A stretch of DNA of 64,000 bases from a virus (IMGVR_UViG_3300010882_000012), one strand, 5' to 3'. Counted from the first letter of the stretch, positions 10,357-64,000 are shown. Numbers and translations are program-made. The notes: generated by a model from the letters alone, not told the origin.

Positions 10357-10415
10357 GTAAAAATACTAAAAATATTAATACTAAACTACAATTTAAGAAA
10401 AAAGTTACTAACAAT
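10357..10415 (-). promoter_or_regulatory. Conserved phage promoter motif copy 1 (ATTGTTAGTAAC-N37-GTATTTTTAC)
   Basis: One of 16 copies with 58-59 bp span, upstream of a gene start. Confidence 0.85.
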
Positions 10416-16962: not shown

Positions 16963-17021
16963 GTAAAAATACAAAAAATAACAATACAAAAGATTATTAT
17001 AAAAGAAAAATTACTAACAAT
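16963..17021 (-). promoter_or_regulatory. Conserved promoter motif copy 2
   Basis: ATTGTTAGTAAT...GTATTTTTAC, 59 bp. Confidence 0.8.
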
Positions 17022-33084: not shown

Positions 33085-33143
33085 GTAAAAATACTAAAAA
33101 TACTGATACAAAACCTCATCATAAGAAAAAAGTTACTAACAAT
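33085..33143 (-). promoter_or_regulatory. Promoter motif copy 4
   Basis: 59-bp motif. Confidence 0.85.
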
Positions 33144-36261: not shown

Positions 36262-36295
36262 GATGTTTAAATTTTGATTTGATTGTTTTGATACT

Positions 36296-36370
36296 GTAAA
36301 AATACTAAAAATACTGATACGAAAGTGTTTAAAAAGAAAAAAGTTACTAACAATTTGTGCTAGTAACCTC
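36296..36370 (-). promoter_or_regulatory. Promoter motif copy 5 fused to terminator hairpin
   Basis: GGTTACTAGC-acaaatt-GTTAGTAACT + T-run. Confidence 0.85.
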
Positions 36371-36938: not shown

Positions 36939-37277
36939 TTATTGGTTTGATTTTCTATCAAGAGCTCTTTTCATTGAACTCTCATGATTTTCTTTTGTAG
37001 TAACTTTGTAGCAAGGTTGTCCACCTTTTAATCCGTATTCTTCCAACCATCTACGATCATTGATTTGCTGATAAAGCAAAGATTGTTCACTACTTTTTTT
37101 ACCATGTTTTTGGAACCAATGGCGAGAAACAACACCATTAACAACTAATCCGCGAGCAGTGTCAATAGGACGAATAATATCTTCAATTTGTTCACGAGTT
37201 AATGGTACAATACGAGCTTCAATTTTATTTAAAATTTCTACCCTAGCTGCATTTTTGTTTACTGATAATACTTTCAT
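36939..37277 (-). CDS. Hypothetical protein (start corrected to MKVLS)
   Basis: ATG follows the promoter leader. Confidence 0.7.
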   Translation of the reverse strand: MKVLSVNKNAARVEILNKIEARIVPLTREQIEDIIRPIDTARGLVVNGVVSRHWFQKHGKKSSEQSLLYQQINDRRWLEEYGLKGGQPCYKVTTKENHESSMKRALDRKSNQ

Positions 37278-37299
37278 GTCTTTGAATTTTGATTGATTA

Positions 37300-37375
37300 A
37301 TAAAAATACCACTTTTTTCGATACGAGTTTCATTAAAAAGAAAAAAGTTACTAACAATTTGTGCTAGCAACTTTC
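37300..37375 (-). promoter_or_regulatory. Promoter motif copy 6 fused to terminator hairpin
   Basis: AAAGTTGCTAGC-acaaatt-GTTAGTAACTTT + T-run. Confidence 0.85.
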
Positions 37376-37399
37376 TTCACTATCAAAATTCAAAATTCT

Positions 37400-38665
37400 C
37401 TAAAATAATTTTTTCTGATCTTGTATTACAATATAACGATCTTCCATGCTGGATAATTTTGGTTTGGGAATCGGTACGATATACCGTGGATCTTTTTGTT
37501 GTTGAAAAAACAGACTACTTTTACTGTTAATAGGACCAATTGGCTGAAAATAATAACTGAAATCACTATTTTTATTACCATGTACTTTCTTTATAATCTG
37601 CATGATTTCATCTTTTGATAAAGAATGATTTTTTAATTGCATCGTAGATAAAATCATACCACGTGCTGACATATCATGTGGACAACGACCTAATCCTTTA
37701 CCACGTTGATATGGTTTTCTTTCTTTTGTTTCTACTACCGGAATTACTTTTTTGCAAGATTGTCTAACTTTTCCTTTTACAACAGGTTTTTCTACCGGAG
37801 CTTCTGTTACAAGTCTGAAAGTGGATTCCATTTTTGTAGCACCAGATTCTACTAATAGAAGAAAACGTTTATCAGTTTTATTCTGCTTCAAAAGAGAAGA
37901 AAATGAACCTACACCATTTGTACTCGGTTTTTGAAAATAATGGATAAAGCAATTGCAATTATCGACAGTTTTTTCTAAAGTAGGATAAGAGGTACCAAGA
38001 AGAAATTCAAGTACTTCTCTCATAGTAACATCTTTTCCTTGTGCTTGAATCCAATCTAAACCCAGAGTACGGAGAGATTTCTTTACAGGTTCTACTTTCT
38101 TAGATGTGGTTGCAACCTCATCTTCAATTGGTTGTGCTTGAACAGGCATCGGCGGAATATGACGACAAGCAAATCCATTTTTAAACATGAATTCTGCCAG
38201 TAAACCTTTTTGAACTAATTTAGAAAGCGATTCAGATAAAGCACCCAAGATAATGGATTCTTGCACATGTAACGGACAAGCTTTGTATGCATCTGCATTC
38301 ACATAGTTATTGTAAAGATCTCGCATTGCTAACGCATCATTGTGATCTTCATAGATAAGACCATCTGCCATAGTATTGTCCTTTTTACTAAGGATGATTG
38401 TTCCAGTTTTCATTTTGATATTGTTTAAAGTTAATTTTTGTTTTACCTCAGTTTTAAGTACTTGATTCCACCGTGCTGCTAGCATACTGTGACCGATGTG
38501 AAATCCGTTACAAATAGGGCATTGGTATGCATCAAATGGAGCTCCCATACTAAGTGTTACACCTTCTGCTGCTTTTTGTGCAATTTCCAACGTTTCATAT
38601 GCTTTCTTTACTTTGTTTCCTTTAGTAAAATGAGCATTTTTCTTTTGTTTTAGTGTTAGTTCCAT
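37400..38665 (-). CDS. Basic multidomain protein co-transcribed with PARP (Zn motif plus two repeated helical modules)
   Basis: YQCPICNGFHIGH; two repeats ending HYF...KTDKRFL and YYF...KDPRYI; starts 1 nt after the PARP stop. Confidence 0.8.
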   Translation of the reverse strand: MELTLKQKKNAHFTKGNKVKKAYETLEIAQKAAEGVTLSMGAPFDAYQCPICNGFHIGHSMLAARWNQVLKTEVKQKLTLNNIKMKTGTIILSKKDNTMADGLIYEDHNDALAMRDLYNNYVNADAYKACPLHVQESIILGALSESLSKLVQKGLLAEFMFKNGFACRHIPPMPVQAQPIEDEVATTSKKVEPVKKSLRTLGLDWIQAQGKDVTMREVLEFLLGTSYPTLEKTVDNCNCFIHYFQKPSTNGVGSFSSLLKQNKTDKRFLLLVESGATKMESTFRLVTEAPVEKPVVKGKVRQSCKKVIPVVETKERKPYQRGKGLGRCPHDMSARGMILSTMQLKNHSLSKDEIMQIIKKVHGNKNSDFSYYFQPIGPINSKSSLFFQQQKDPRYIVPIPKPKLSSMEDRYIVIQDQKKLF

Positions 38666-38666
38666 A

Positions 38667-39938
38667 TTAACGCTCTATAATTTCAACGATATAACGAATT
38701 GTTGACTGTTCTGTAGAATAAACCATAAACTCATTATTACGAATTGAAGTGCCGGCATGAGCATAAACACTATCAAAACCTTCACGATCAAGTTGTTTTT
38801 TATTTAAATCATAACAAGCCGATGTATGATTATAGATATGTTTTTGATTGCCCACATGAACATCATAGATTGCTAAGAAAGCTTTTTTGCTACAACCCTT
38901 TGCCCAATAAGAACCAGAAAGAGAAGTATATCCAATAGATTTTTGTGCTTTATCTGCAAAATAAACAGAATTTCCATACATTGCACCTGTAATTATTACA
39001 CCCGCCGGACGTATTAAAAGTCCGGTTTGCAAGATGTTCATCCAATTTTCATTTCTGCTACCATGCCAAAACAGTTCGCATTTTTGGTTTTTGGCTTTTG
39101 CAACATAGCTCTTAAAGTTTCCTTCTGTTTTTTTGTTTACCACAGAAAAAGCTCTTTTGTACTGACCGGAATTGTTTCCCATCATTTTCTTAATGAGTTC
39201 TGCTTCTTTAGAAGACACTTCTTTAACTTCTAGTCCAAGTACCTCAAGCATGTCCATAGTGCTCTTAGAATTGCCCGTTTGCGTCCTGGTGGCTTCTTTT
39301 TGTTTCTTTATTGCTTCAACCTGACCCGCCATAACGTCCAAAAGTTTTTGTTCATCATCTAGCATTCGTTGTAATGATGAGGTAGAGTATCCGCTTTCTA
39401 CAAGATGGTTTTTTACGTGAGCCATTTTTCTCGGTACTGTTCGATACAATTTCAACAAACAATCATTAATAGTTGTTGAAGTACTTTGATTTCTTAAATG
39501 ACCAACCAAGTTGTCAAGGATTTTTTGAGCCTCATCAACTTGTGCTTGTGTAACATCTTCTTGAGTTACAGAATAGTTTTCTTTAATGGTTTTGTTTGCA
39601 TATGCTTGGAGTTCGTCAATGAGTTGACGCACCATAGCATTCTGGATGGCGGTTACTTGTGCTCCGGTTGTAGCATCTTTGATATCGGCCTCAATCTTTT
39701 CAGTATAGAGGTGTGTGATATCATTGTAACCTTTTTTGGTTTTTTCACGATACTTTTTATCCCAATCCGACATAGGATAAGAGTGCTCTATGGAGGTAGA
39801 TTCTATCCTGCCATAAACCACTTTAAAATTTCCATCGTTCTGCTCGAACATATGGTAAAACTTGTTGTTATTGTCCCCTGTAACACAAACCAGTTTTTTA
39901 ACTTGTTTGCCTGGTACCGAGTAATCTGATATTTTCAT
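38667..39938 (-). CDS. PARP-family ADP-ribosyltransferase with N-terminal WGR-like domain
   Basis: NNNKFY...VVYGRI...EKTKKGY (WGR-like); FWHGS, GAMYGNSVYFADKAQKSIGY, RNNEFMVY = H-Y-E triad. Confidence 0.92.
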   Translation of the reverse strand: MKISDYSVPGKQVKKLVCVTGDNNNKFYHMFEQNDGNFKVVYGRIESTSIEHSYPMSDWDKKYREKTKKGYNDITHLYTEKIEADIKDATTGAQVTAIQNAMVRQLIDELQAYANKTIKENYSVTQEDVTQAQVDEAQKILDNLVGHLRNQSTSTTINDCLLKLYRTVPRKMAHVKNHLVESGYSTSSLQRMLDDEQKLLDVMAGQVEAIKKQKEATRTQTGNSKSTMDMLEVLGLEVKEVSSKEAELIKKMMGNNSGQYKRAFSVVNKKTEGNFKSYVAKAKNQKCELFWHGSRNENWMNILQTGLLIRPAGVIITGAMYGNSVYFADKAQKSIGYTSLSGSYWAKGCSKKAFLAIYDVHVGNQKHIYNHTSACYDLNKKQLDREGFDSVYAHAGTSIRNNEFMVYSTEQSTIRYIVEIIER

Positions 39939-39959
39939 ATGATATTGAATTTTGATAGT

Positions 39960-40018
39960 ACAAAAATACCGCTTTTTTCTTTACGATGAGAACCTAGATG
40001 GAAAAAGATACTAACAAT
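39960..40018 (-). promoter_or_regulatory. Promoter motif copy 7 (drives PARP unit)
   Basis: ATTGTTAGTATC...GTATTTTTGT, 59 bp. Confidence 0.85.
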
Positions 40019-40038
40019 TTCATGATAAGGTTTAAACT

Positions 40039-40127
40039 AAAAAAGTCCTTGATTACTCAAAGACTCTTTTAGACGTTCAAAAATCATTATTCACAAAATC
40101 TTGATAAATGAAAAAATCAAAAATTGT
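40039..40127 (-). ncRNA. Candidate ~85-nt U-rich small RNA with own promoter and terminator
   Basis: Lies between promoter copy 8 and hairpin terminator ~40039-40068; too short for a credible ORF. Confidence 0.55.
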
Positions 40128-40130
40128 ACT

Positions 40131-40189
40131 ACAAAAATATTGTAATTCTAGATATGAAAGTTTAGTTACATGAAAAAGTTACTAACAAT
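40131..40189 (-). promoter_or_regulatory. Promoter motif copy 8 (no downstream gene)
   Basis: 59-bp motif. Confidence 0.8.
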
Positions 40190-40195
40190 CTGTTT

Positions 40196-40575
40196 AAAAA
40201 GAAAAACGCCCATAGATTCTTTCTGGGCGCTTCTCGTCAGATTTTTGGGCGAAGGTTCTGTAACACCTTTTCTGGCAGCCTAATGGACCTAGTTGAAATC
40301 AATTGTTTTCTGTCCCGGCAGCATGCCCCATAAACCAAGATTCATTTCATGTTCAGGTTCTTGGTCGACCTGATTGCCGGCAAGGTGTTTTCGCTTTCGC
40401 TACGGATTACCTTCGGTGCCGGCAGGCATTCTAAAGACCTGACTCGCGATTCCCGAACGGTTCGCATTATAGCGGCGGGCTCGAGGAGGTCTGGTTTTTC
40501 CGAGTTGACGTTAGGATTCCGCGCGGAGATTCCTGGTTTCTGATCAGCCTACCAGGTAGTGTCAATCGGATGAGA
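40196..40575 (-). ncRNA. Candidate ~370-nt structured non-coding RNA (RNA-A)
   Basis: About 50% GC by hand count (187/370 for 40201-40570); multiple nested helices; own promoter (copy 9) and terminator (CGCCCA...TGGGCG + T-run). Confidence 0.75.
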
Positions 40576-40577
40576 TT

Positions 40578-40635
40578 GTAAAAATACTAAAAATATCAAT
40601 GCGAAAATTTAAAAAGAGAAAAAGTTACTAACAAT
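40578..40635 (-). promoter_or_regulatory. Promoter motif copy 9 (drives RNA-A)
   Basis: 58-bp motif followed by structured RNA instead of the usual A-rich leader. Confidence 0.85.
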
Positions 40636-40660
40636 TTAAACAATTTTTGATGAGGTTTAA

Positions 40661-40920
40661 AAAAGAAAAGAGTCCTTAGATTACTCTAGGACTCTCTTCA
40701 CCACCCAAATTGCTATTTGATTCCCCAATAGGTTGCAACCCTCCCAAGATTTCGGCATAGGTTCTTGGTTGACCGTCTTCTAGGTTGCTGGCGGTAATAC
40801 GCTTTAAAAGCTTCCGCATCTTGCATTAACCTAATCGTGATTTTTCACCCCGACCACACTATTTGGTTGTTTTCAGCCCGGTTGTGAACCTCCTCGATTA
40901 CTCGTTCGAGTCGACAATAG
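40661..40920 (-). ncRNA. Candidate ~220-nt structured RNA (RNA-B) plus terminator, in the 3' region of 40924..41751
   Basis: GC-rich hairpins; shares GGTCRACCAAGAACCT...AATCTTGG with RNA-A; terminator ~40661-40698. Confidence 0.65.
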
Positions 40921-40923
40921 ATA

Positions 40924-41751
40924 TTAAAACATGTCTGCTTTTAAAATACGGATACGAACATCCGGATAAGGAACTCCAGTATAACGAGAATAAGCAGCTT
41001 TTGCTTGATTTTTTGTCATTACAGCATCATAATAACGCTCTTCCTCATCCGGGAATTTAACAGGATGTCCAAAACAAACATAATCTCCTTTTTCAGGATA
41101 TGTAATACCTGCATCCTTATCATCAGTATCATCAATATCATCTTCAAGACGATATTGAGAATTTGCAAGCGCGCAAGGTTCATCATCAACTGTTGAAAAA
41201 AGCTCTGGATGGAATTCTTCAAGTTCTTCTAACGTAATTTCACCATAATGGATATTGGCTAAGTACTTTTTCAAATTTTCGCGGGTACCGGTCAAATTTG
41301 CGGAGGTGTTTCCAGTTACTTCAATTTCCAAATTGTAGTTTTGCAACACCTCTAAGGCCTCATCAAGTTCTTCTTCATCACATACCCAATCAACATCAAC
41401 AATGAATTGGTCATTAAGTCCGTAAAGGTCTGTAACCATTGCATTTACGGCTTGGTCATGTGCATGATCTTCATCATTCATTGCATTCAAAATGGTAAGC
41501 GCACGGAGATCATCCATAGCTTGTGCATCACAAAGAGATTTGAAGTAAATCCGGTAGTCTCCATTGTGTCTCCAGTCTATAACACCCTCATTTTTGAGGT
41601 CTTGCATGAAAGTTGAAACAATTTGCTGCGTTGCCCAAAAATCGTTGGCGCGTAATTCGTTTTTAACTTCTAAAGTTGTGGTTTCTCCGTTCAATTCGAT
41701 TAGAGTTTGTGCAACCACTTGCACATCATTTTTTGTAGTTGTCTTTTTCAT
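40924..41751 (-). CDS. Acidic multidomain protein with winged-helix-like N terminus
   Basis: TTTLEVKNELRANDFWATQQIVSTFMQDL...YRIY; D/E-rich middle. Confidence 0.8.
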   Translation of the reverse strand: MKKTTTKNDVQVVAQTLIELNGETTTLEVKNELRANDFWATQQIVSTFMQDLKNEGVIDWRHNGDYRIYFKSLCDAQAMDDLRALTILNAMNDEDHAHDQAVNAMVTDLYGLNDQFIVDVDWVCDEEELDEALEVLQNYNLEIEVTGNTSANLTGTRENLKKYLANIHYGEITLEELEEFHPELFSTVDDEPCALANSQYRLEDDIDDTDDKDAGITYPEKGDYVCFGHPVKFPDEEERYYDAVMTKNQAKAAYSRYTGVPYPDVRIRILKADMF

Positions 41752-41797
41752 AGCTAACTTTTTAAATGGTTTTTAATTTTGGTTAATTATTTTGAGA

Positions 41798-42244
41798 TTA
41801 TCCAAGCGGACAACCTTCTTTTCTGTAACAAGGGAATGTAGGACATCCGCCAATCATTTTTTCAGGTTCACGACAATACGCATCTTGTGGAAGCAAAGTT
41901 ACACGATCATTGTGGAATCGGTAGTAATCCGGATTTCTCTTGATATTATCAAGGTCAAAATACCACATTTTTGCAGGATTTCCATCTGTTCCTATCCAAC
42001 CTTGAAAATCGGGGTGAATTTCAAAAATTTCAGTAGGGATGTAGTGCTTAAGCAACTCTTCATCCATAGAATCGGAATAACAATAAAGACCTTTTCTAAC
42101 AGGTCCTTCTGACTCAGTACCCGCGAAAGTTCTCATATTACTGCCCATTTCGATGTCTCGGTCTACGTCAATAAAGTAAAAACCGCCCTCACCATTATGG
42201 TGCTGAAAGAAGATGTCTAAAAATTTAATTTCAAGTGATGTCAT
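41798..42244 (-). CDS. Hypothetical protein
   Basis: First gene after promoter copy 10. Confidence 0.75.
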   Translation of the reverse strand: MTSLEIKFLDIFFQHHNGEGGFYFIDVDRDIEMGSNMRTFAGTESEGPVRKGLYCYSDSMDEELLKHYIPTEIFEIHPDFQGWIGTDGNPAKMWYFDLDNIKRNPDYYRFHNDRVTLLPQDAYCREPEKMIGGCPTFPCYRKEGCPLG

Positions 42245-42264
42245 GCTAATTGAATTTTGATACT

Positions 42265-42323
42265 GTAAAAATACTGCTTTTTTCTTTATAATGAGGCCCT
42301 AGATAGAAAAAGTTACTAACAAT
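42265..42323 (-). promoter_or_regulatory. Promoter motif copy 10
   Basis: 59-bp motif. Confidence 0.85.
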
Positions 42324-42541
42324 TTAACTATTATGGTAAAGAAACAAAAATAGTCCATGTGTTATCCTCTAAATAGAGAATTTTTTGTTCTACTTTCACA
42401 ATATTATTAATAGCCGGTATTTTCAAACCATCTCCTTTATTAAGATATAGTAAACCTTGATTGTTTGATGTTACTATTAATCCGTCAGAAAGTACAGATG
42501 CAACATTTTAATTGAAATATTGTGTTCCATATCAGTAAATT

Positions 42542-42805
42542 TTAATCGTTACGTTGAAAAACTATTGGAAATTCGTCAAAAACTCCGTCAATGAAGTAAT
42601 TATTGGTTAAATCGTAAATTCCTCTCGGAAAGTACCGTAAATCTGGTAATTCATTGTATTCGAATCCCCATTTATCATTGAAAATCTCAAACATACGACG
42701 TCTTGGATCTTCATCTGTTATTTTTACAAGGAGGTCAACATCAAAAGTTATATCATTGTGTCGATGTACGTGATGACCACAAAAACTAAAATAGGATGTT
42801 TTCAT
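42542..42805 (-). CDS. Hypothetical protein
   Basis: YFSF.GHH...RRRMFEIFNDKWGFEY. Confidence 0.7.
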   Translation of the reverse strand: MKTSYFSFCGHHVHRHNDITFDVDLLVKITDEDPRRRMFEIFNDKWGFEYNELPDLRYFPRGIYDLTNNYFIDGVFDEFPIVFQRND

Positions 42806-42810
42806 AATTC

Positions 42811-43179
42811 TTAAGATTGATGAGGTGAATTCACGTCTGCATTTTTCAAAAAGAGTTCCATAGCTTTCTTTTTACTGATATTGTCCGGAATTTTAAATCC
42901 GTTAGGACATGTAACACCTACAACATTAGCTCCTCTAAATCTTTCTTCTACTGATTTTTGGTTTTTCATTTGTTTTTCCATCTTTTTCATCCATCCGGAA
43001 GTTCCTTTACGAATAGCTTTTTGCATGGGGCTCATTTTACGATATTTTAACCATTTTGGTACGAAATTGGCTGCCAGATACATTACTATAATAATGATAC
43101 CAGCCCACATTTCGAAAATTGCAAAAATGATAATGGTCAAAACCGCTAAAATTGCAAGGATAATTGATAATCTGTTCAT
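42811..43179 (-). CDS. Membrane protein
   Basis: Two N-terminal hydrophobic segments. Confidence 0.7.
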   Translation of the reverse strand: MNRLSIILAILAVLTIIIFAIFEMWAGIIIIVMYLAANFVPKWLKYRKMSPMQKAIRKGTSGWMKKMEKQMKNQKSVEERFRGANVVGVTCPNGFKIPDNISKKKAMELFLKNADVNSPHQS

Positions 43180-43732
43180 GTTTTTAAATTTTGATTGGTT
43201 AATTTTTGATTAAAAGTAGGATACAAAAGCATTATGTTGGATATCTTCTGCTTCTAGTCTTTCCATTCTGCGTAAACCTGCATCTATCATACGATCTTTT
43301 TCTTGTTCATAAAGATGATCTGCAATATCAGCAAGGGCATCATTTGTCAGCTCTTCAAACTGACAATTTTCTTCATCTTGATTGCATCTGTCAGCAAATG
43401 GACAGTCAAAACAAGAATCGGGGGTGAAAATTTCATCCGGATCCATAATTAGTTGAATTTTTGATGTTTAACAATTTCTCTAAGTACCGGAATATCCTTG
43501 GTATAGACCGGAAGAACTGTTGCACAAGAGATTTGACGTTTTTCTATCTGAGCTTTTGCTTGCTCTTCATTAGGATACAAAGTTTCCAAATCTATCTTAC
43601 CTGATAGATGGTCTAAAATTGCATACCATTTTTGTCTACCGGATTTATCCGATTGTTTTTCGTTGATGTAAGTTAAAGCCATATGATTTTGATTATTTTT
43701 AATTACTTTTTTAAGGAACGGAATAGTAGTTT

Positions 43733-44119
43733 CTAATCCCTACCTTCTACCACTTCAAACTTGGTCTGAAAATTACCTTCATATGTGATGTTTACCAAGG
43801 TAGAATTCTCTATGCAATGGTTGTAGAGTTTACGTTTTTTTGACATTTGGATAGACTCAAAAAAATAGCGACCATCATTGATTCTAGTTACTACAAAAAT
43901 TTCCCCATTATGGTTGTGCACAAAAAAGTGTCCTCTAGCACCCTTTAAATTAACAACTCGATTTCCATCGAGGTCAATACGGAAATAATAATTAGACGGA
44001 ACTTGTGGTTCTATTGCTTTAAGAGATCCACAAAATTGTACAAAACCTCCTCCATCTTTATTTGGTCTTCCTTGAATTTCAGTGAACATAGCACCTTGTG
44101 CGATAAAGGTCTTTTTCAT
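43733..44119 (-). CDS. Hypothetical protein
   Basis: 128-aa packed ORF. Confidence 0.7.
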   Translation of the reverse strand: MKKTFIAQGAMFTEIQGRPNKDGGGFVQFCGSLKAIEPQVPSNYYFRIDLDGNRVVNLKGARGHFFVHNHNGEIFVVTRINDGRYFFESIQMSKKRKLYNHCIENSTLVNITYEGNFQTKFEVVEGRD

Positions 44120-44130
44120 AGTTTTAAATT

Positions 44131-44505
44131 TTAAAGTGAGTCTAACTTAGTTTGTGATTTGATTCCACCCGATTTGGTTACACTTGTATCATATGTTACT
44201 TTCACACCTAAAAACGGAACAGCATACACTATACGAATGATGTTCTGGTTACGTGGTGCTTTTACAAATTCCATATCAAGAAGTTCGATAGCATACTCAT
44301 CACCCTTAGGCATTTCGAGTTTACGGAAGTTTGTGCTGATTTTAAATTTTTTAAATTTCCAAGATTCCTCAAGGTCAGGAGTGGAGCTATAAGTAAGTTC
44401 CATCCACGTGTTGGCTAATCTCCACTCTAATTGATTGTGAACTGCTTTCTCTATCTTCGAGAAGATGGGATTTCCCCATATTGCATTTAATTGTCCTGTT
44501 GTCAT
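44131..44505 (-). CDS. Hypothetical protein
   Basis: First gene after promoter copy 11. Confidence 0.7.
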   Translation of the reverse strand: MTTGQLNAIWGNPIFSKIEKAVHNQLEWRLANTWMELTYSSTPDLEESWKFKKFKISTNFRKLEMPKGDEYAIELLDMEFVKAPRNQNIIRIVYAVPFLGVKVTYDTSVTKSGGIKSQTKLDSL

Positions 44506-44536
44506 ATCTGATAAATTTGAATTTTGATTTGATAGT

Positions 44537-44595
44537 GTAAAAATACAGAAAAAATCAATACGATGAGGTCCTAGATAGAAAAAGTTACTAACAAT
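44537..44595 (-). promoter_or_regulatory. Promoter motif copy 11
   Basis: 59-bp motif. Confidence 0.85.
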
Positions 44596-44604
44596 CTGTT
44601 TAAA

Positions 44605-44797
44605 ATTAAAACATCCTCAGTCAAGAGGATGTTTAAACATCCTCAGTCAAGAAGATGAGTAGGCATTAATTGGATATTGTTAAAGTGACCGACAAGCGTG
44701 AGTATTAAACATCCTTTAGGATTTCCATTAAGTTTGTGAAAATTTCAAAACACTAAACCTTGTAACCGTCTCAATCCACCGGTAAGCCCATACTACC
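44605..44797 (-). ncRNA. Candidate rod-shaped ~190-nt ncRNA (RNA-C)
   Basis: Lies between two terminator-like hairpins, no ORF of note; nested complementary blocks 44658-44664/44786-44794, 44671-44679/44772-44778, 44687-44696/44759-44770. Confidence 0.45.
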
Positions 44798-44861
44798 GTC
44801 AAAATACGTTGAAATTATTACTATACTAGTATGCGAAGGTTACAAAAAGTTTCAGTTTTTT

Positions 44862-44890
44862 AAAAAGAAAAAGCTCTCATTTAAGAGAGC
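44862..44890 (-). terminator. Intrinsic terminator
   Basis: GCTCTC-6nt-GAGAGC + T-run. Confidence 0.75.
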
Positions 44891-44949
44891 CATACTTTTG
44901 CAACCAGTGGTGCTAAATCATTATTTCTGTGAACTTAGTGCAAAAGCTA

Positions 44950-45303
44950 TTAGTATGTTGCAAAAATTACTTCTGCATCAATGAGTACCAAATTGGTACC
45001 TGTGCATTGTTTTGCCATTTTTACCATTTCATTTTCAAACTTATCCCATATTTTACTTGAAACACCGTCTCTTAAAAGAGGAAATCCCCAAGTGTATACT
45101 TCTCTTCCTTCTCTATTATTAATGAGAATTTGTCCTGAATCTGTATCTCCATCATCTGCATCTCTTCCTAATTCTTTTGATGATACATTAAGTTGGTATG
45201 CTACTGAAATAGCTCCTATGTTTGGATTGTCAAAAATTCCAAGTGTAAAACCTTCACTGTCCATAACAGATGGAAAATTGCTTAGATTAACTTTCTTTGT
45301 CAT
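44950..45303 (-). CDS. Hypothetical protein
   Basis: 117-aa ORF. Confidence 0.7.
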   Translation of the reverse strand: MTKKVNLSNFPSVMDSEGFTLGIFDNPNIGAISVAYQLNVSSKELGRDADDGDTDSGQILINNREGREVYTWGFPLLRDGVSSKIWDKFENEMVKMAKQCTGTNLVLIDAEVIFATY

Positions 45304-45338
45304 ATAATATACTCTTTTTTACTATCTATTCCAGAATT

Positions 45339-45728
45339 TTAATCAATTATTCCTTCGTCATTCAAATCATTAAGTAGTAAACCAAGATATTGGTCTCCTA
45401 CTTTAAAATCATTAAGATTAGCTAATCCATATGCTTTGTACGTATGATCTATGAACCAAACATTACATTCAAAAATTGCCAATAATTCAAGTTCAGAAAT
45501 TTTATCTGCATGTGTATTACCGATATAGTTGATAGACAATTTTTTCTCTTTTGCATACTTCTTAATTGTATTGGCCTCTGAAATTGAACGATCTTGAATT
45601 ATCATAGGAGATAATGGTTGCATAGTTCCGCTATAAGGCCACGGCAAACCTTGCATTAAATGATCAACAATGGCTTTGTCTCCTATTGTATCATCTACTT
45701 CTAATTTGACTAAAATTGTTCTTTTCAT
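45339..45728 (-). CDS. Hypothetical protein
   Basis: 129-aa ORF. Confidence 0.7.
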   Translation of the reverse strand: MKRTILVKLEVDDTIGDKAIVDHLMQGLPWPYSGTMQPLSPMIIQDRSISEANTIKKYAKEKKLSINYIGNTHADKISELELLAIFECNVWFIDHTYKAYGLANLNDFKVGDQYLGLLLNDLNDEGIID

Positions 45729-45738
45729 GTTGGTATTA

Positions 45739-46242
45739 TTAACATTGATTTAAAATTTCTTCTTTTACTTGTTCAAATCTCTCCCATATTCTCTCCGCGT
45801 ACCAAGTATGCTTATTGTGCAATCGGATTGCCTTATTAAGGTCCTTTTCTGGATTTCTGTGGTTTTGTACTATATCAAACATTTCTCTTGATTTCGTGAT
45901 ATCAAAAGCATCTTCATGTTTGTACTTCTCTTTTCCTAAGATTCGATTCACTTCCTTAACATAGATAGGTGTGATTTGAATTATTCCCCAATCTTTGTCC
46001 TTTCCTTTTAGTTTAGGATCATTTGCATAGTCCTTTTCTTGTTCATTAACACCCAAAATGGTTTTAGTCTCTACCCAACAAATGGTCTCATAAAGTAGCT
46101 CCCATTCTTGTTCTTTTGTGAGTTCTTTTTGCATAACTATTACCTCCTCGACGACAGGCTCTTCTTGATGAGGTTCTTCTATAGAAGAAATCAGTAATCC
46201 GGTAAAAACTGCTATTATTACATGATTGATGATATTTTTCAT
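45739..46242 (-). CDS. Lysozyme-fold / lytic transglycosylase-like protein with N-terminal anchor
   Basis: ICWVET (candidate catalytic Glu), WGIIQIT (G-x-x-Q), KAIRLHN. Confidence 0.7.
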   Translation of the reverse strand: MKNIINHVIIAVFTGLLISSIEEPHQEEPVVEEVIVMQKELTKEQEWELLYETICWVETKTILGVNEQEKDYANDPKLKGKDKDWGIIQITPIYVKEVNRILGKEKYKHEDAFDITKSREMFDIVQNHRNPEKDLNKAIRLHNKHTWYAERIWERFEQVKEEILNQC

Positions 46243-46261
46243 TACTTGAATTTTTGATACT

Positions 46262-46320
46262 GTAAAAATACGAAAAATAGGGACACAAAAGTCCCTATGT
46301 AGTCAAAAGTTACTAACAAT
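46262..46320 (-). promoter_or_regulatory. Promoter motif copy 12 with terminator hairpin inside the spacer
   Basis: ATAGGGAC-ttttgt-GTCCCTAT + TTTT at 46273-46298. Confidence 0.8.
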
Positions 46321-46327
46321 TTGAGTA

Positions 46328-46984
46328 TTAAGCTTTTCTATCTTCGGAGATTCTGTTGAGATAAAAGCTAATCATTTCATAGACAGGTTGAAGTTCTTTC
46401 GGAATATCACCCTTTGTATGCTCTCTATCTACTAAGAGACGTAAAGCCTCTAAATGATAATTGATGAGGTTGAGACAATCATAGGATTGTTGCCCACGCG
46501 TAAACATGCTGGTAAGATGTGCCATTTCTTGATATTGACCAAGTTCATCTATGATTTCAGCATAACGTGCATCTCCGGTTTTGTTTGAAAACGGATTTTC
46601 ATGTCTCCACTCATCAAGCTTCTTTTTAGCTTTTTCGATTTCAGGCGTAACATCAGAACCGGGTGAACCTGATTTATCAGTAACTAAGATAATCTCCGGT
46701 TGTTTAGGATCCGGTTTAATTAAACGGCATTCGTAATAATGATTTGCACACAAATTCCAATGGATAAGTCCATCTTCTGTTTGCCAACATCCACCCGATT
46801 GATAGCGAAATGATTGATCGTTAAAGTGTGATAAATCAGCTTTGTGCCAATCTGATCTTTGGTAATCTACACTTGCATCAAAAGCATAATCATCGGTGTA
46901 GATTCCATTGCATCTGATTTCAATATTACCGACATGGATTTGCTTTTTCAGCCAATCTCTTCTAATTGTTTTGATTTTTGTCAT
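46328..46984 (-). CDS. Hypothetical protein
   Basis: KTIRRDWL...YTDDYAFDA. Confidence 0.75.
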   Translation of the reverse strand: MTKIKTIRRDWLKKQIHVGNIEIRCNGIYTDDYAFDASVDYQRSDWHKADLSHFNDQSFRYQSGGCWQTEDGLIHWNLCANHYYECRLIKPDPKQPEIILVTDKSGSPGSDVTPEIEKAKKKLDEWRHENPFSNKTGDARYAEIIDELGQYQEMAHLTSMFTRGQQSYDCLNLINYHLEALRLLVDREHTKGDIPKELQPVYEMISFYLNRISEDRKA

Positions 46985-47002
46985 GATATTTTGAATTTTT
47001 GA

Positions 47003-47353
47003 TTAGTCTTCTACGATTTGAAAATTTTCATCTTCTAAAATTCCAAGGTTAATAGCCTCAGCTTTTGAAAGTAAGGTGCATATCATAATACCTTTAGACC
47101 ATTCTGTAGTACCATAAAATTTGCAACCTTTACAACCGCCTTCACCACAATCTTCCGGACAATCGGTATGTTCTGAAGAGTAAAAGTCTTCAAACGCTAA
47201 TAGCCTATGATTTCCATCCGGCTCATTTAAAATTAAGTAATCTTCTTGTACTTCGAGTACAATACCCTCATAGACCTTACCATTAGGAAGATTGTTTGAT
47301 CCTCTCATGATGATTTTGATCCGGTCCTTAGGTTCAATTGGTACATTTTGCAT
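47003..47353 (-). CDS. Hypothetical Cys-containing protein (start corrected to MQNVP)
   Basis: ATG follows the promoter leader. Confidence 0.7.
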   Translation of the reverse strand: MQNVPIEPKDRIKIIMRGSNNLPNGKVYEGIVLEVQEDYLILNEPDGNHRLLAFEDFYSSEHTDCPEDCGEGGCKGCKFYGTTEWSKGIMICTLLSKAEAINLGILEDENFQIVED

Positions 47354-47378
47354 AATATTGAATTTTGATTTTGATATT

Positions 47379-47456
47379 GTAAAAATACAGCTTTTATCCT
47401 TACGAAAGTGCATGAATCGGAAAAAGTTACTAACAATCATATGCTAGTAACCTTTT
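47379..47456 (-). promoter_or_regulatory. Promoter motif copy 13 fused to terminator hairpin
   Basis: AAAAGGTTACTAGC-atatgatt-GTTAGTAACTTTTT. Confidence 0.85.
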
Positions 47457-47476
47457 CACTATCAAATCAAAATTCT

Positions 47477-47785
47477 TTAATCGTAAATTTCTTGGCACAT
47501 GGATTTCCATGTTTCTTCTTCTATTTCAGTAGAGTTGTTAAAATTAAGGTATGCAAAATTTCCATTTCTGGTATAGAACTTGCAACCAAACTTTTCAAAT
47601 TCTCTTTCTATTAAACAGTCTCTATCTGAAAGTGATAAATTCGGCGATTGTTTAGAGATGAGATTATGCGCTAATCTAAGTGCTGCTGCATCCGTTTCTA
47701 TTTCTGGTGTAGTCTCATCAAATCCTACTCTATGATAAAGTTTGAAAAAGACGGCTTCTGCTATTTGTTGATTTGAAACTTTCAT
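47477..47785 (-). CDS. Hypothetical protein
   Basis: 102-aa ORF. Confidence 0.7.
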   Translation of the reverse strand: MKVSNQQIAEAVFFKLYHRVGFDETTPEIETDAAALRLAHNLISKQSPNLSLSDRDCLIEREFEKFGCKFYTRNGNFAYLNFNNSTEIEEETWKSMCQEIYD

Positions 47786-47797
47786 GATGATAAAATT

Positions 47798-48229
47798 TTA
47801 AAGATTTTCGTAACCGCTTGCATAAGTAATTCCGAGTACTTTACTATGAAGATCTTGTTCGATTTTGCGGCTAGCATGAAGAACTTCCATTAATTCATCA
47901 TATTCCGGTTGTAATCCGTCTTGAATCATTTGGTAGCTATAGTTAATAGTACCGTCTGACATGATATCAAAAGCATAAGAACTTTGTGTATCTTGCTCAT
48001 TCCGAAATTGTGTACCGAAATCAAAAGATTTGCGCACTTTGTAACCAGATGGAGGATTGCTTGCCGGCATTCCTTTGTATTGTAAAAGACCTTTTTTCCA
48101 AAGATTTTTGATTTGGAGACAAAAGTCAAAAAATTGCAAACTATTAACAGCTCCTAAATAGTTCTTTCCATGGAAAAGATGAACTGCCTGATGTGTGAGA
48201 TGTTGATTGATTTTTGGTTTTACTGACAT
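47798..48229 (-). CDS. Hypothetical protein
   Basis: 143-aa ORF; related to 29933..30181. Confidence 0.7.
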   Translation of the reverse strand: MSVKPKINQHLTHQAVHLFHGKNYLGAVNSLQFFDFCLQIKNLWKKGLLQYKGMPASNPPSGYKVRKSFDFGTQFRNEQDTQSSYAFDIMSDGTINYSYQMIQDGLQPEYDELMEVLHASRKIEQDLHSKVLGITYASGYENL

Positions 48230-48240
48230 GATATTGAATT

Positions 48241-48570
48241 TTAATTAATTTCTACTATTTTCCAAACATTGCGATTACCAAGAAAACTCTTAAGAGAAAT
48301 TTGGTCGACTGCCATATACTCATGGATATAACCCGCTTTATCTTGTACCCAATAACAATTAAGAACGTCTGAAAAGTCAAACTTCCATCCGAGCAATGGA
48401 ATAGCTGTTTTAAAATAGGAGTTGGTATTAACTCCTTCAGTAATAAAACGGGCATCTTCTCTTGAAAGATCTTCTCCGTTGTTTACTTTTTCCATGATAG
48501 CATACACTTTTGAGTTTTGAACGGCTGTAATATTATTTGCTGTTTCTGAGAATTTGGTTATATTTTGCAT
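48241..48570 (-). CDS. Hypothetical protein
   Basis: 109-aa ORF. Confidence 0.7.
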   Translation of the reverse strand: MQNITKFSETANNITAVQNSKVYAIMEKVNNGEDLSREDARFITEGVNTNSYFKTAIPLLGWKFDFSDVLNCYWVQDKAGYIHEYMAVDQISLKSFLGNRNVWKIVEIN

Positions 48571-48637
48571 GTTCGTTATTATTAAACGGTTTGAAATTTT
48601 GAACGAATTGAATTGATGTTGTTTGTGATTTTGAACG

Positions 48638-48889
48638 TTACAGTAATTCTAAGAAATTAGCATTACCCCAACCGTCTGCTCTTCTAATCCAAGCATTGTG
48701 GCTGGTAAATTCTTGATCTCCCCAATAAATGGTCCGATCTAAGTTAACTTTAACATTAATAGTATGGATATCTTTGGTCACCTCTGCTATAGTACCTTCT
48801 TCCATTTGTCCGAAAGTCATAGTTTTGCATTTTCTACCGATGAGGTCATTACGGAGGATTCCATTAGGTGCTAATTCTTGTACTGTCAT
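48638..48889 (-). CDS. Hypothetical protein (start corrected to MTVQE)
   Basis: ATG follows the promoter leader. Confidence 0.7.
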   Translation of the reverse strand: MTVQELAPNGILRNDLIGRKCKTMTFGQMEEGTIAEVTKDIHTINVKVNLDRTIYWGDQEFTSHNAWIRRADGWGNANFLELL

Positions 48890-48914
48890 GATGTTTGAAT
48901 TTTGATTTGATATC

Positions 48915-48993
48915 GTAAAAATACAGCTTTTATCCTTACGATAAGATTTAAAAAGAAAAAAGTTACTAACAATTTGCATGCTAGTAACCTTTT
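48915..48993 (-). promoter_or_regulatory. Promoter motif copy 14 fused to terminator of the NAD operon
   Basis: AAAAGGTTACTAGC-atgcaaatt-GTTAGTAACTTTTTT. Confidence 0.85.
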
Positions 48994-49040
48994 CCACAAT
49001 CAAAAATTCAAAAAAGTTCTCTATTCAAGAGAATTTATTA

Positions 49041-52461: not shown

Positions 52462-52668
52462 TTTAAAATTTTTGATTATTGTTTTAATTTGTCATGTTTT
52501 GATAAAGTGTGCATTGCAAGAATCCTAAGAATCTTTTGATAGAAGAAAATTGCTATAGGGATTAAAACCAACCATATAGAAATTTCAATAATAGTTGCAA
52601 GTTTTAAGACAAGCAAAATTATTGAAACTAAAATTAGTCCCAATCCGGGTAATAAAAATTTTCTTGCT

Positions 52669-54523: not shown

Positions 54524-55000
54524 ACTCTATTTCCCATTCTCTTTCTTCTGTGGTTGCTTCCGACTGAACTACAAACTCTGGGAGAAGTTTGTTTCTCGTT
54601 TCACAAATTCAAGATACGTCTCACCACCAGATATTACCTGAATCTCCACGAGCTTAAATTCGATATGTTCTATACCTACTCGTTCTCTTAGTACTAATTA
54701 GATTAATTAAAGTTAGCGTTCTCATCAATTTCTCTGCTTAGTTATCATCAATCAAAATTCTATTTTATTATGCGCAAGTTTTAAAAAGTTTTAGAATTGT
54801 TGGAAAAAAATTGAAATTTTATCCGGTCTTTCATGTGCTTTACAAACTAAAGATTGACAACCGATTTCTTTTAGTGCACATTGTTGACAATCATTTAGTT
54901 GATATGATTTTACTACTTTGTATCGATTTCCTTTAAATCGGCATGTAGTTCCTAACTCTATGAAAAACTTTTTCTTCTTTTTCATATACTATCTATTTTA

Positions 55001-55129: not shown

Positions 55130-55486
55130 TTATGATAACGGTTGTGAAGTTGTTGCACACCATGGACCTCTATTAGCTGCCCAGGACGTCTCACAACGGA
55201 GATTGATACTTGGAATAGCATAACAAACTTTGAGGTCACCAAGGTGGTCATTTACGCCCAAAAATTGAGCATCACGATAACCATATGCTTTGGCATATTT
55301 TTCAAAACGACTACGGATTGTTCTAACCGTACTTGCCCATTTTCTACGACCTTCTGAATTGTTGAGGGAGATAATGGTACTTTGAAGTGCACGATAAACA
55401 CCGTCACGACAATTTTCGTAAACTGCATTTGTACTTACAGCTTCTTCACGAGCTGATGTTGCTGGATTTTCTTTTTTTACTGACAT
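55130..55486 (-). CDS. Hypothetical protein (start corrected to MSVKK)
   Basis: ATG follows the promoter leader. Confidence 0.7.
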   Translation of the reverse strand: MSVKKENPATSAREEAVSTNAVYENCRDGVYRALQSTIISLNNSEGRRKWASTVRTIRSRFEKYAKAYGYRDAQFLGVNDHLGDLKVCYAIPSINLRCETSWAANRGPWCATTSQPLS

Positions 55487-55518
55487 GATTTTAAATTTTG
55501 ATTGATTAACTTTGTAAC

Positions 55519-55596
55519 GTAAAAATACAGCTTTTATCTTTACGATAAGATTTAAAAAGAAAAAAGTTACTAACAATTTTCATGTAGTAACTTTTC
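55519..55596 (-). promoter_or_regulatory. Promoter motif copy 16 fused to terminator hairpin
   Basis: AAAAGTTACTAC...GTTAGTAACTTTT. Confidence 0.85.
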
Positions 55597-56673: not shown

Positions 56674-57090
56674 TTAGTTATTATAGTATTTAAAATTTAC
56701 TCGAGGACAAACATCACAAAGAAAAGTCCTGCCCATATTACACTTAATAAAAGAATTGTATTCACATCCTTTTGATCTTTTCTTTCCTTTGATATCTGGT
56801 AATCCAGATTCCCCATCTCTATCAAACCAAGTTGTCAACTCATAATATTGATATGGTTCTTCATTAGGACCTGCAAAGTATTCAAAGTAAACATCTTTAT
56901 TATCATCTCTATTTTGTGACTCACATGCTATCTGTTCACAAAAATCTTCACCATAACAATAAAAAACACAAAGACCTTTACAAGGTACATTAAAGTGATG
57001 TTCTGTAATAATAATTTTTCCCCAATTTTCTGTTTCTATGATAGAGCCTATTGCTAAGTCGTAATATTCTAGATTTTTCATTTTAGACAT
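56674..57090 (-). CDS. Cys-rich hypothetical protein
   Basis: 138-aa ORF. Confidence 0.65.
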   Translation of the reverse strand: MSKMKNLEYYDLAIGSIIETENWGKIIITEHHFNVPCKGLCVFYCYGEDFCEQIACESQNRDDNKDVYFEYFAGPNEEPYQYYELTTWFDRDGESGLPDIKGKKRSKGCEYNSFIKCNMGRTFLCDVCPRVNFKYYNN

Positions 57091-57158
57091 CTCTTTTTAA
57101 TTTAATATGATAAACTTTCAAAAAGTTTTAATTTTCCAATAGTAAAGAGAAGATTTTT

Positions 57159-63413: not shown

Positions 63414-64000
63414 ATTTCTAAAATTTTAAGGTTTAACATTTTAAGCATCCAGAACCACTATAATTTCCACAACTATGGTAAGTAATTCCTAAGTAATTTT
63501 CATAATAATCATTACAACATCCAGAACAATTTTCTTCTTCATCTTCATTTTCTAAATCTCTTACCGGTTTTACAGATTCTTTACATTTTGGACAATAAAA
63601 AAGTTGGTGCAATTTCATTATTAAGTTCAGTACCACACATTGGACAAAAGTACAATTTTTTTCATATCTTTAAATTTTGATTGATTACTAAATTTCAATT
63701 GTTTCCATACACCAAATTCTAATATCAGGACAACGATCAAGATCGAAAATTAACCTTTTACGATTTCTGTTTACATCATAACCTTGAAATTCATGATAAT
63801 CTTCTATGAAATATCCGGCATATTGAAAATTAGTACGATTAAGTCCATTGTAAACAGCAAGTAAAAATCTGTTAGGTCCTGAAAGTGAATTTTCATACAC
63901 TTTTTTATCCAAAGTATTTTGGTGTACAAAATATTGTGGAAATTCGGTTTTCCATCTACGATAAATCCTTGTTTTAATGTAATCCAAAAACTGAAACCAA

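Follow-up and report, generated by a model that had tools for sequence, protein, structure and literature searches.

The early-type region of this phage raises an unusual question: why do some of its predicted transcripts end in the reverse complement of a leader, and can such a message pair its own two ends? The window, 64,000 nucleotides in length, comes from the virus IMGVR_UViG_3300010882_000012, a large, uncultured phage in which a T4-type portal was matched (PF07230, E = 8.6e-60). An earlier note had reported two transcript leaders perfectly complementary to the trailers of their own units. Direct reading of the DNA bears out both cases: 39945-39959, in the unit encoding a PARP-like enzyme, is the exact reverse complement of 37379-37393 (15/15), and 48897-48912 that of 47460-47475 (16/16). 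Two weaker pairs also hold, at 13 nt (54747-54760 with leader 55494-55506) and 11 nt (52467-52477 with 48998-49008). Judging from the sequence and folding of one genome, the finished message can probably pair its own ends and damp translation.

The region is tiled by about 22 repeated cassettes, each composed of terminator, promoter, and leader, which can be aligned in register; both cassette orientations are present in the genome. The order along the transcript is terminator hairpin, conserved upstream element, promoter, and A-rich leader; a hairpin is present in 10 of the 22 cassettes and absent from the other 12. The predicted promoter box, GTATTTTT(A/G), resembles the consensus TAnnTTTG, and the promoter looks, by its sequence, to be of the Bacteroidota -33/-7 type, not sigma-70. 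No Pfam family was found for eight of the ten proteins flanking cassettes. Transcription start sites, terminators, and unit boundaries are predictions throughout. The hairpin scan also places a module hairpin after the NAD operon (48995-48955). Two further hairpins and one complete cassette are as follows.

37277-37358, minus strand: cassette P37300, with upstream element 37346-37358, promoter box 37300-37309, leader 37278-37299, and ATG at 37277
37340-37378, minus strand: terminator-like hairpin of 17 bp with a U-run, from the hairpin scan; the conserved upstream element of the next promoter forms its 3' arm and reads GTTACTAACAAT on the plus strand
47419-47457, minus strand: terminator hairpin of the 47379 cassette, with a U-run; stem about 16 bp, from RNAfold only

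The leader core, ATCAAAATTCAA, is common to 13 of the 22 module leaders and is a general start-region motif, found in 63 of 179 gene starts (35%). It is also seen ahead of internal genes lacking a promoter module, as would suit a role in translation better than one in transcription. A Shine-Dalgarno (SD)-like 4-mer precedes only 6 of the 179 gene starts, and SD use appears to be absent from them. In 146 kb there are 11 exact copies of the 12-mer core: nine are leader-sense and lie just before an ATG, and both inverted copies adjoin a terminator hairpin. Four leaders or start regions enter into what follows.

39945-39959, minus strand: 5' leader of the PARP unit; promoter box 39960-39969 lies just upstream and the ATG 6 nt on, at 39938; the plus strand reads TTGAATTTTGATAGT
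48897-48912, minus strand: 5' leader of the unit from cassette 48915, whose first gene (48638-48889) is DUF7258
55484-55518, minus strand: leader of cassette 55519 and partner of element A6 (below), from cassette alignment and matching
52464-52480, minus strand: internal start region of the NAMPT gene, a five-A variant of the motif, with an 11-nt match to element A3 (below)

The reverse complement of the core, here called the anti-leader, occupies only six non-coding sites (A1-A6), five of which directly adjoin the 5' arm of a cassette terminator hairpin. The element is a 13-19 nt reverse complement of a leader that fills the non-coding stretch from stop codon to hairpin; the hairpin stem in cassettes that carry it is about 14-17 bp.

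37379-37396, minus strand: anti-leader A1, 2 nt past the stop of ORF 37400-38665 and abutting the terminator hairpin; 37379-37393 within it, the PARP-unit trailer, is ACTATCAAAATTCAA
47458-47475, minus strand: anti-leader A2, 1 nt past the stop of ORF 47477-47785
48998-49014, minus strand: anti-leader A3, where the NAD operon ends, preceding the module hairpin 48955-48995 and overlapping the U-tract of a weak upstream hairpin
54747-54760, minus strand: anti-leader-like element A6, in a 267-nt non-coding gap, with no adjoining module hairpin

The placement of these elements is not random. The trailers had been described as lying just before the terminator, and both strong ones do begin 1-2 nt past a stop codon, directly 5' of a hairpin with a U-run. 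Anti-leaders are found in 5 of the 10 hairpin-bearing cassettes and in none of the 12 without a hairpin (hypergeometric p ~0.01), which suggests that they belong to real 3' ends. Of the nine inverted core matches (at most one mismatch), four fall in non-coding DNA, an enrichment given that such DNA makes up 9.7% of the region. The outer edge of the inverted repeat coincides with the promoter/leader boundary, so the complementarity is limited to transcribed bases. Immediately upstream of A3 and A4 is a weaker hairpin whose U-tract the anti-leader overlaps, so some transcripts may end before the anti-leader is complete. The non-coding gaps at 54524-54790 and 44600-44855 gave folding z-scores of +0.8 and -0.9; as candidate structured RNAs they were rejected on these unremarkable scores and for want of mutual similarity, and neither resembles the structured RNAs at 40196-40920.

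The only relative found to carry the cassette is IMGVR_UViG_3300010167_000012 (G001), with about 20 modules, four of them with hairpins; DNA similarity to it is restricted to the cassettes (93% identity), the genes sharing none. No anti-leader was found in the modules of this sole cassette-sharing phage, so neither conservation nor the covariation in related phages that the earlier note looked to could be shown. Pattern scans of viral, metagenome, and genome contigs returned G001 only, the other matches being chance; megablast of the whole window against the phage collection gave no match, and protein searches for syntenic loci, using a 421-amino-acid protein and the PARP-like protein, returned only the phage itself. 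The 421-amino-acid protein is encoded on three contigs, the longest of 181 kb. No Rfam family scored above threshold, and ARAGORN identified no tRNA. PF01818 (RegA-type translational repressor) and PF07068 (Gp23 capsid) were not matched, but the controls were silent as well, making this search uninformative.

The cassettes recall the promoter-early stem-loop (PeSL) cassettes known from T4-type phages, in which they mediate shuffling (Arbiol et al. 2010, PMC2839356; Comeau et al. 2014, PMC4122927). The likeness lies in a repeated intergenic motif of about 100 bp that joins a terminator stem-loop, a strong promoter (predicted here), and the start region of the next gene; in small flanking genes, mostly without assigned function, and a cassette more conserved than its cargo; and in a T4-type phage, here identified by its portal. 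PeSLs are further described there as mediating recombination and mini-circle formation. They differ in having sigma-70-like -35/-10 elements and an SD at the 3' end, neither of which was found in the phage cassettes, whereas in the latter the 3' arm of the hairpin doubles as the conserved upstream element. The inverted leader copy on the terminator side is likewise present in the phage but is not described for PeSLs in the passages of the two papers that were consulted.

How closely does each anti-leader match the leader of its own unit? In four units the own-leader match is 15, 16, 14, and 13 nt, and none of 2,000 dinucleotide shuffles per trailer reaches the observed cognate 15, 16, or 14 nt. 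The cognate leader ranks 2, 2, 15, 2-5, 15, and 2 among the 22 leaders for the six elements. Permutation with this sample, six elements from one genome, gave a cognate bias by match length of p = 0.005 (0.02 for five elements and 0.01 for the four strong ones) and by duplex energy of p = 0.02-0.07. The earlier proposal to compare cognate with non-cognate and shuffled matches thus gave a divided answer: cognate matches beat shuffles and random leaders, but one non-cognate partner is better each time. A1 matches its cognate leader L39960 over 15 nt and the non-cognate L70869 over 16; A2 matches L48915 over 16 nt and the non-cognate L44537 over 19; A6 matches L55519 over 13 nt and L37300 over 14. 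Two anti-leader units have non-matching 5' leaders: A3 matches its cognate module leader over 8 nt, the NAMPT start region over 11, and, as its best partner, a start region at 47004 over 16, and A5 matches the module leader of its own unit over 7 nt. Every anti-leader has its best match in a leader or start region other than its cognate one, and the top partners are without exception start regions. The caution that leaders are mutually similar and match across units was correct, and some of these cross-unit matches exceed the cognate ones. For the leader of the next gene, which lies about 100 nt off, there is no such bias (p = 0.5), the matches being 13, 12, 10, 6, 6, and 9 nt.

Predicted duplexes of anti-leader with leader have energies of -14 to -20 kcal/mol, and predicted minimum free energy (MFE) folds of whole transcripts join leader and trailer in the P39960, P48915, and P70869 units, pairing leader positions 1-15 or 3-18 with the trailer; the predicted accessibility of the anti-leader is only moderate (0.38-0.62 unpaired), a point against such pairing. 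Of the leader-trailer helix as first proposed, the non-coding complement at the 3' end, on the transcribed strand, and its MFE pairing stand; toward the own leader there is a bias, with one better non-cognate partner in every case.

Since the trailer usually resembles the complement of its own leader closely, the finished message can probably pair both ends. We tentatively favour, at somewhat less than an even chance, the explanation that the 3'-UTR anti-leader pairs with a leader, preferentially its own, occluding the start of the first gene and base-pairing the 5' end. After transcription of the anti-leader and termination, the free 3' UTR would pair with the A-rich leader; the 5' leader of the same molecule would be the most reachable partner, and also tends to be the most alike. 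The duplex would extend from about nucleotides 1-3 of the transcript to some 5-8 nt before the AUG. In an SD-less host whose initiation needs an unstructured A-rich upstream region, this would lower first-cistron initiation on finished transcripts, and the leader:anti-leader duplex would leave the 5' end base-paired. Structure in the mRNA is described as tuning initiation in Bacteroidetes (PMC6847099). Cross-pairing with other early messages would likewise be expected, because the target is a consensus motif. End protection, shut-off of initiation, and processing are candidate roles of the helix; the transcript ends, in vivo pairing, and its possible consequences for translation or stability are inferences from the features above. 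It counts against this explanation that about half of the terminators lack an anti-leader.

A DNA-level by-product would account for much of the same anatomy. The inverted leader copies could be scars of recombination or inversion, or the result of gene conversion, between opposed PeSL-like cassettes, carried with the 5' arm of the hairpin and having no RNA function. As repeats, the cassettes are recombinogenic: they share 93% identity with those of a phage whose genes have no DNA similarity, and both orientations occur; the element is fixed in position beside the hairpin arm and missing from G001; and an inversion event between two inverted leaders would place a leader at one end of a cassette and an anti-leader at the other, so that cognate similarity is predicted here too. 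We nevertheless place this origin on the unlikely side: the perfect runs of 13-19 nt stand amid otherwise unconserved trailers, the repeat is confined to transcribed leader bases, neither a full inverted module nor a target-site duplication was seen at the inspected loci, and quasi-palindrome correction would favour the nearest leader (~100 nt), which is unbiased (p = 0.5). Quasi-palindrome correction was itself rejected, the nearest leader not being the best match, as was a transposon or MITE as the origin of inverted repeats 15-16 bp long: they lack a target-site duplication, no Pfam match resembles a transposase, and the "repeat" is a motif common to a third of gene starts. At the RNA level, anti-leader and hairpin might instead act in trans as a 3'-UTR antisense seed against the common start motif, damping many early messages as transcripts accumulate, with the own leader in no way special. 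The frequency of the target (13 of 22 module leaders, 63 of 179 gene starts), the better non-cognate partner of every element, and the top partners, all start regions, speak for such a generic brake, as does the seed lying directly 5' of the terminator hairpin, the layout of 3'-UTR-derived small RNAs. A purely generic model would not lead one to expect the cognate bias (p = 0.005-0.02), however; a processed small RNA or chaperone is not known in the phage, the relative G001 lacks the element, and we regard the brake as unlikely.

Sequestration on read-through RNA has a precedent in the T4 genes e, soc, 49, and I-TevI, whose start regions are sequestered in longer transcripts (PMC3014915); there too, sequence upstream of a promoter is complementary to a downstream start region, and the identity of the transcript decides translatability. 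Applied here, the anti-leader would pair with the leader of the next gene, leaving only transcripts from that gene's own promoter to be translated, and MFE folds across the 37300, 47379, and 48915 cassettes (three of five modules) do close a three-way junction with an anti-leader:next-leader helix. The T4 partner is local and gene-specific, however (PMC3014915), whereas the local pair in this phage is at random level (p = 0.5) with a strong terminator between the partners; two of the following genes lack the motif, and the element is confined to places at which read-through is already stopped by a strong terminator (0 of 12 hairpin-less cassettes), making this very unlikely. Extremely improbable is a pair of DNA operators, with the leader motif as a protein site at the transcription start and an inverted copy about 100 bp upstream allowing looping or repression. 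Three promoters do have inverted copies on either side, 100-108 bp apart from centre to centre, but the helical phase of this spacing varies, the motif also stands before internal genes without a promoter module, and two anti-leaders flank promoters whose own leader lacks it. An antisense promoter on the plus strand before the leader-like copy was rejected: no acceptable -33/-7 pair was seen by eye, and an ATG follows one copy only (an 8-codon ORF).

To our knowledge, only two cases of 5'-3' pairing within one bacterial mRNA are well studied, icaR and hbs. In icaR, as here, the message carries in its 3' UTR a short complement of its own ribosome-loading region, with blocked initiation as the predicted outcome; there an anti-SD UCCCCUG pairs with the SD of a single gene, as shown experimentally, with RNase III cleavage (PMC3868564), whereas the phage would form an A/U-rich duplex of 13-19 nt with an SD-less consensus leader in several polycistronic units, by prediction only. 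The hbs mRNA of Bacillus subtilis has a 5'/3'-UTR helix of similar length (14 bp) that affects ribonuclease access to the leader, but it concerns a single host gene and cleavage by RNase Y and is neither repeated nor cassette-borne (PMC5737220). We found no published description of 5'-3' pairing that is encoded by a cassette and recurs among phage early genes.

A more far-reaching and rather unlikely version of self-pairing makes each cassette-borne early message a self-closing unit: the complement of its first 15-19 nt is transcribed last before the terminator, so that completion would tie the 5' to the 3' end, switch off the first cistron (e.g., the PARP-like enzyme), and shield both ends, a portable "transcript-completion timer" on PeSL-like cassettes, suited to SD-less hosts. 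If real, pairing of the ends would mean that the promoter-terminator cassettes by which genes are shuffled among T4-type phages also carry a level of post-transcriptional control. It would reveal a way to hold translation down in phages of SD-less hosts, in which leader structure is the main lever, and would bear on the dosing of potentially costly genes such as those for the PARP-like enzyme and NAD+.

The window spans bases 63901-127900 of a 146-kb phage contig. This contig is estimated to be 56% complete (CheckV) and encodes a T4-type portal (PF07230, E = 8.6e-60); beyond roughly 55 kb, every gene of the contig lies on the minus strand. This region is tiled by some 22 copies of a single composite cassette, whose parts, in transcript order, are:

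Hairpin: long (stem approximately 14-17 bp), with a U-run after it
Conserved element: ATTGTTAGTAAC, the 3' arm of the hairpin
Promoter box: GTATTTTT(A/G)C, about 35 nt beyond the conserved element
Leader: (A/G)NTATC...ATCAAAATTCAAA pattern, 16-32 nt long
ATG: after the leader

The 5' arm of the hairpin is present in 10 of the 22 cassettes, and the other 12 have the conserved element alone. A terminator scan identified terminator-like hairpins at 37378-37340, 48995-48955, and 54523-54488, and folding also supports the cassette hairpins. The putative promoter resembles the Bacteroidota -33/-7 consensus, and this likeness, together with the absence of a Shine-Dalgarno (SD) site, distinguishes the cassettes from the promoter-early stem-loop (PeSL) cassettes of T4-type phages. 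The architecture itself is shared with PeSLs (PMC2839356, PMC4122927). The sequence GTTACTAACAAT is conserved some 45 nt before the promoter box (10404-10415, 17010-17021, 33132-33143, 40624-40635, and others), including in the 12 cassettes where it has no inverted partner. Besides forming the 3' arm of the terminator, it therefore probably serves the promoter, either as an upstream element or as a factor site. Three cassettes (47379-47410, 48915-48946, and 55519-55550) have a promoter core made of an inverted repeat (minus-strand TCGTAAGGATA ... TATTTTTACGA), predicted to fold as a second hairpin beside the terminator in read-through RNA.

The core of the leader, AAAATTYAA with at most one mismatch, precedes 63 of the 179 predicted gene starts in the whole genome, versus 6% of random 30-mers (examples in the window are at 43184-43195, 48234-48245, 52464-52480, and 63670-63681), and it also precedes internal genes that have no promoter module. 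SD-like 4-mers precede six of the 179 starts, fewer than the random background. The core is therefore a general start-region motif and does not mark single units; it looks like a general SD-independent start signal of this phage, whose host is probably Bacteroidota-like.

Reverse complements of the leader, here termed anti-leaders, occur in the trailers of several units. The exact 12-mer ATCAAAATTCAA has 11 copies in the contig, nine in leader sense directly before an ATG and two in the opposite sense, each beside a terminator hairpin. When the minus-strand gene region was searched for plus-strand matches to a module leader that were 13 nt or longer, only five fell in non-coding trailers (A1 to A4 and the anti-leader-like A6), all others being coding; A5 is a weaker element. 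All 22 module leaders were compared with all trailers and then with the whole genome.

Table. Anti-leaders, the match of each to its cognate leader (that of the promoter expected to drive the unit) with its rank among the 22, and the best partner found. Leaders (L) and units (P) are named by promoter box position; G000 denotes contig numbering.
A1, 37379-37396: cognate 15 nt, rank 2 of 22; best L70869, 16 nt, non-cognate
A2, 47458-47475: cognate 16 nt, rank 2 of 22; best L44537, 19 nt, non-cognate
A3, 48998-49014: cognate 8 nt, rank 15 of 22; best the internal start region at 47004, 16 nt
A4, G000 133730-133746: cognate 14 nt, rank 2-5 of 22; best L37300, 15 nt, non-cognate
A5 (weaker), near G000 143557-143572: cognate 7 nt, rank 15 of 22; even the best partners match weakly
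A6, 54747-54760: cognate 13 nt, rank 2 of 22; best L37300, 14 nt, non-cognate

A1 to A5 each follow a stop codon and precede a module hairpin, whose 5' arm is 7-10 nt away; A1 begins 2 nt and A2 1 nt past the stop. Anti-leaders are found in five of ten hairpin-bearing cassettes versus none of 12 hairpin-less ones (hypergeometric p ~0.01, our own arithmetic), and of the nine inverted hits obtained when one mismatch was allowed, four fall in non-coding DNA, which makes up 9.7% of the region. Putative tandem terminators are seen at A3 and A4, where a second hairpin, short and weaker, lies just before the anti-leader (49015-49035 and G000:C1:133747-133770) and overlaps it with its U-tract.

A6 opens the first of two non-coding gaps of about 260 nt (54524-54790 and 44600-44855), each of which separates a stop codon from the terminator of a cassette. 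Compared with shuffled sequence, the gaps show no excess folding stability (z = +0.8 and -0.9), and they show no relation to each other or to the structured RNAs at 40196-40920 (folding z = -3.0 and -2.1). Upstream of both, and of the gene start at 57090, lies a second repeated motif (minus-strand AAACTTTTTGAAAGTTT...; 44819-44854, 54758-54793, 57095-57130, and G000:C1 ~144121) that differs from the main cassette and may be a second promoter class.

An earlier note had reported two leaders as exact reverse complements of their own trailers, and direct reading confirms both: 39945-39959, in the PARP unit (leader L39960), against 37379-37393 (15/15), and 48897-48912 against 47460-47475 (16/16). 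The coordinates of its weaker 13-nt and 11-nt matches also hold. Of 2,000 dinucleotide shuffles of each trailer, none reaches the cognate matches of 15, 16, and 14 nt. When leaders were randomly reassigned to elements, cognate matches stood above random assignment by match length and by duplex energy, respectively, for all six elements (p = 0.005 and 0.02), for A1 to A5 (p = 0.02 and 0.07), and for the four strong elements A1 to A4 (p = 0.01 and 0.04). However, each strongly matching element has a better non-cognate partner, and the 5' leaders of the A3 and A5 units do not match their anti-leaders; there is thus a modest but real cognate bias, as the note proposed, but specificity is not supported. 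What the trailers complement is a shared consensus, and the unit's own leader is never the single best match. Toward the next gene's leader, which lies about 100 nt off beyond the terminator and promoter, there is no bias (13, 12, 10, 6, 6, and 9 nt; p = 0.5). Two best matches are reciprocal, A1 (upstream of P37300) with L70869 (G000:C1 ~134750-134766) and A4 (end of the P70869 unit) with L37300 (37281-37295), which could be a trace of cassette re-assortment.

Nearest-neighbour energies predict cognate leader:anti-leader duplexes of -14 to -20 kcal/mol. In the predicted minimum free energy (MFE) structures of complete terminated transcripts, leader positions 1-15 of the PARP unit (2.6 kb) and 3-18 of the P48915 unit (1.5 kb) pair with the trailer, as does the leader of the P70869 unit; leader-trailer pairing is absent from the MFE structure of a control unit that has no anti-leader. 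In isolated 3' ends the anti-leader is unpaired at 0.38-0.62, a moderate predicted accessibility. The leader-trailer helices envisaged in the earlier note are plausible, and its interpretation is partly supported.

The sole relative found was IMGVR_UViG_3300010167_000012 (G001, 217.7 kb); other hits among viral, metagenome, and genome contigs were rejected as chance matches. G001 has some 20 copies of the cassette, sharing its box, upstream element, and leader, at up to 93% identity (36279-36368 versus G001:C1:198892-198980 and 168784-168874), and against a 20-kb query it gave no gene matches at the DNA level and no match to the PARP-like protein. The regulatory cassette is far better conserved than its cargo between these phages. 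None of the four hairpin-bearing cassettes of G001 has an anti-leader, and the genome has no exact inverted core and no terminator-adjacent match of 12 nt or more. This comparison speaks against the anti-leader being an obligatory cassette part.

Anti-leaders occur only at real terminators and only in non-coding trailers, and they match none but transcribed leader bases, a placement that favours action at the 3' end of terminated RNA. A pair of DNA operators seems to us very improbable. Since the bias is toward the cognate leader and not toward the nearest one, pairing with the transcript's own 5' end is favoured over T4-style occlusion of the next gene in read-through RNA (PMC3014915), which we consider quite unlikely. 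In predicted folds of read-through RNAs over three cassettes, the anti-leader does pair with the next leader. We tentatively prefer the reading that the anti-leader pairs as RNA with a preference for its own leader.

With a consensus motif as target, the anti-leader could on energetic grounds equally well cross-pair in trans, and it might be a generic trans-acting brake on the shared leader motif of other messages, an explanation we regard as unlikely. Somewhat unlikely, too, is a DNA-level origin of the inverted leader copies as relics of recombination. The cassettes, which are recombinogenic repeats, occur in both orientations, and inversion between two inverted leaders would produce just this arrangement, a cassette bounded by a leader and an anti-leader, and would account for cognate similarity as well; the lack of anti-leaders in G001 fits such a recent, lineage-specific origin.

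If the anti-leader does pair with its own unit's 5' end, the duplex would begin at the 5' terminus and stop 5-8 nt short of the AUG, leaving the 5' end paired. mRNA structure tunes initiation in an SD-less host (PMC6847099), so the duplex should lower initiation of the first cistron. The closest experimental precedents for 5'-3' pairing within one mRNA are icaR (PMC3868564) and hbs (PMC5737220). As read from the sequence of one genome, the anti-leader cassettes of this phage would combine a PeSL-type cassette with 5'-3' pairing of the icaR/hbs type.
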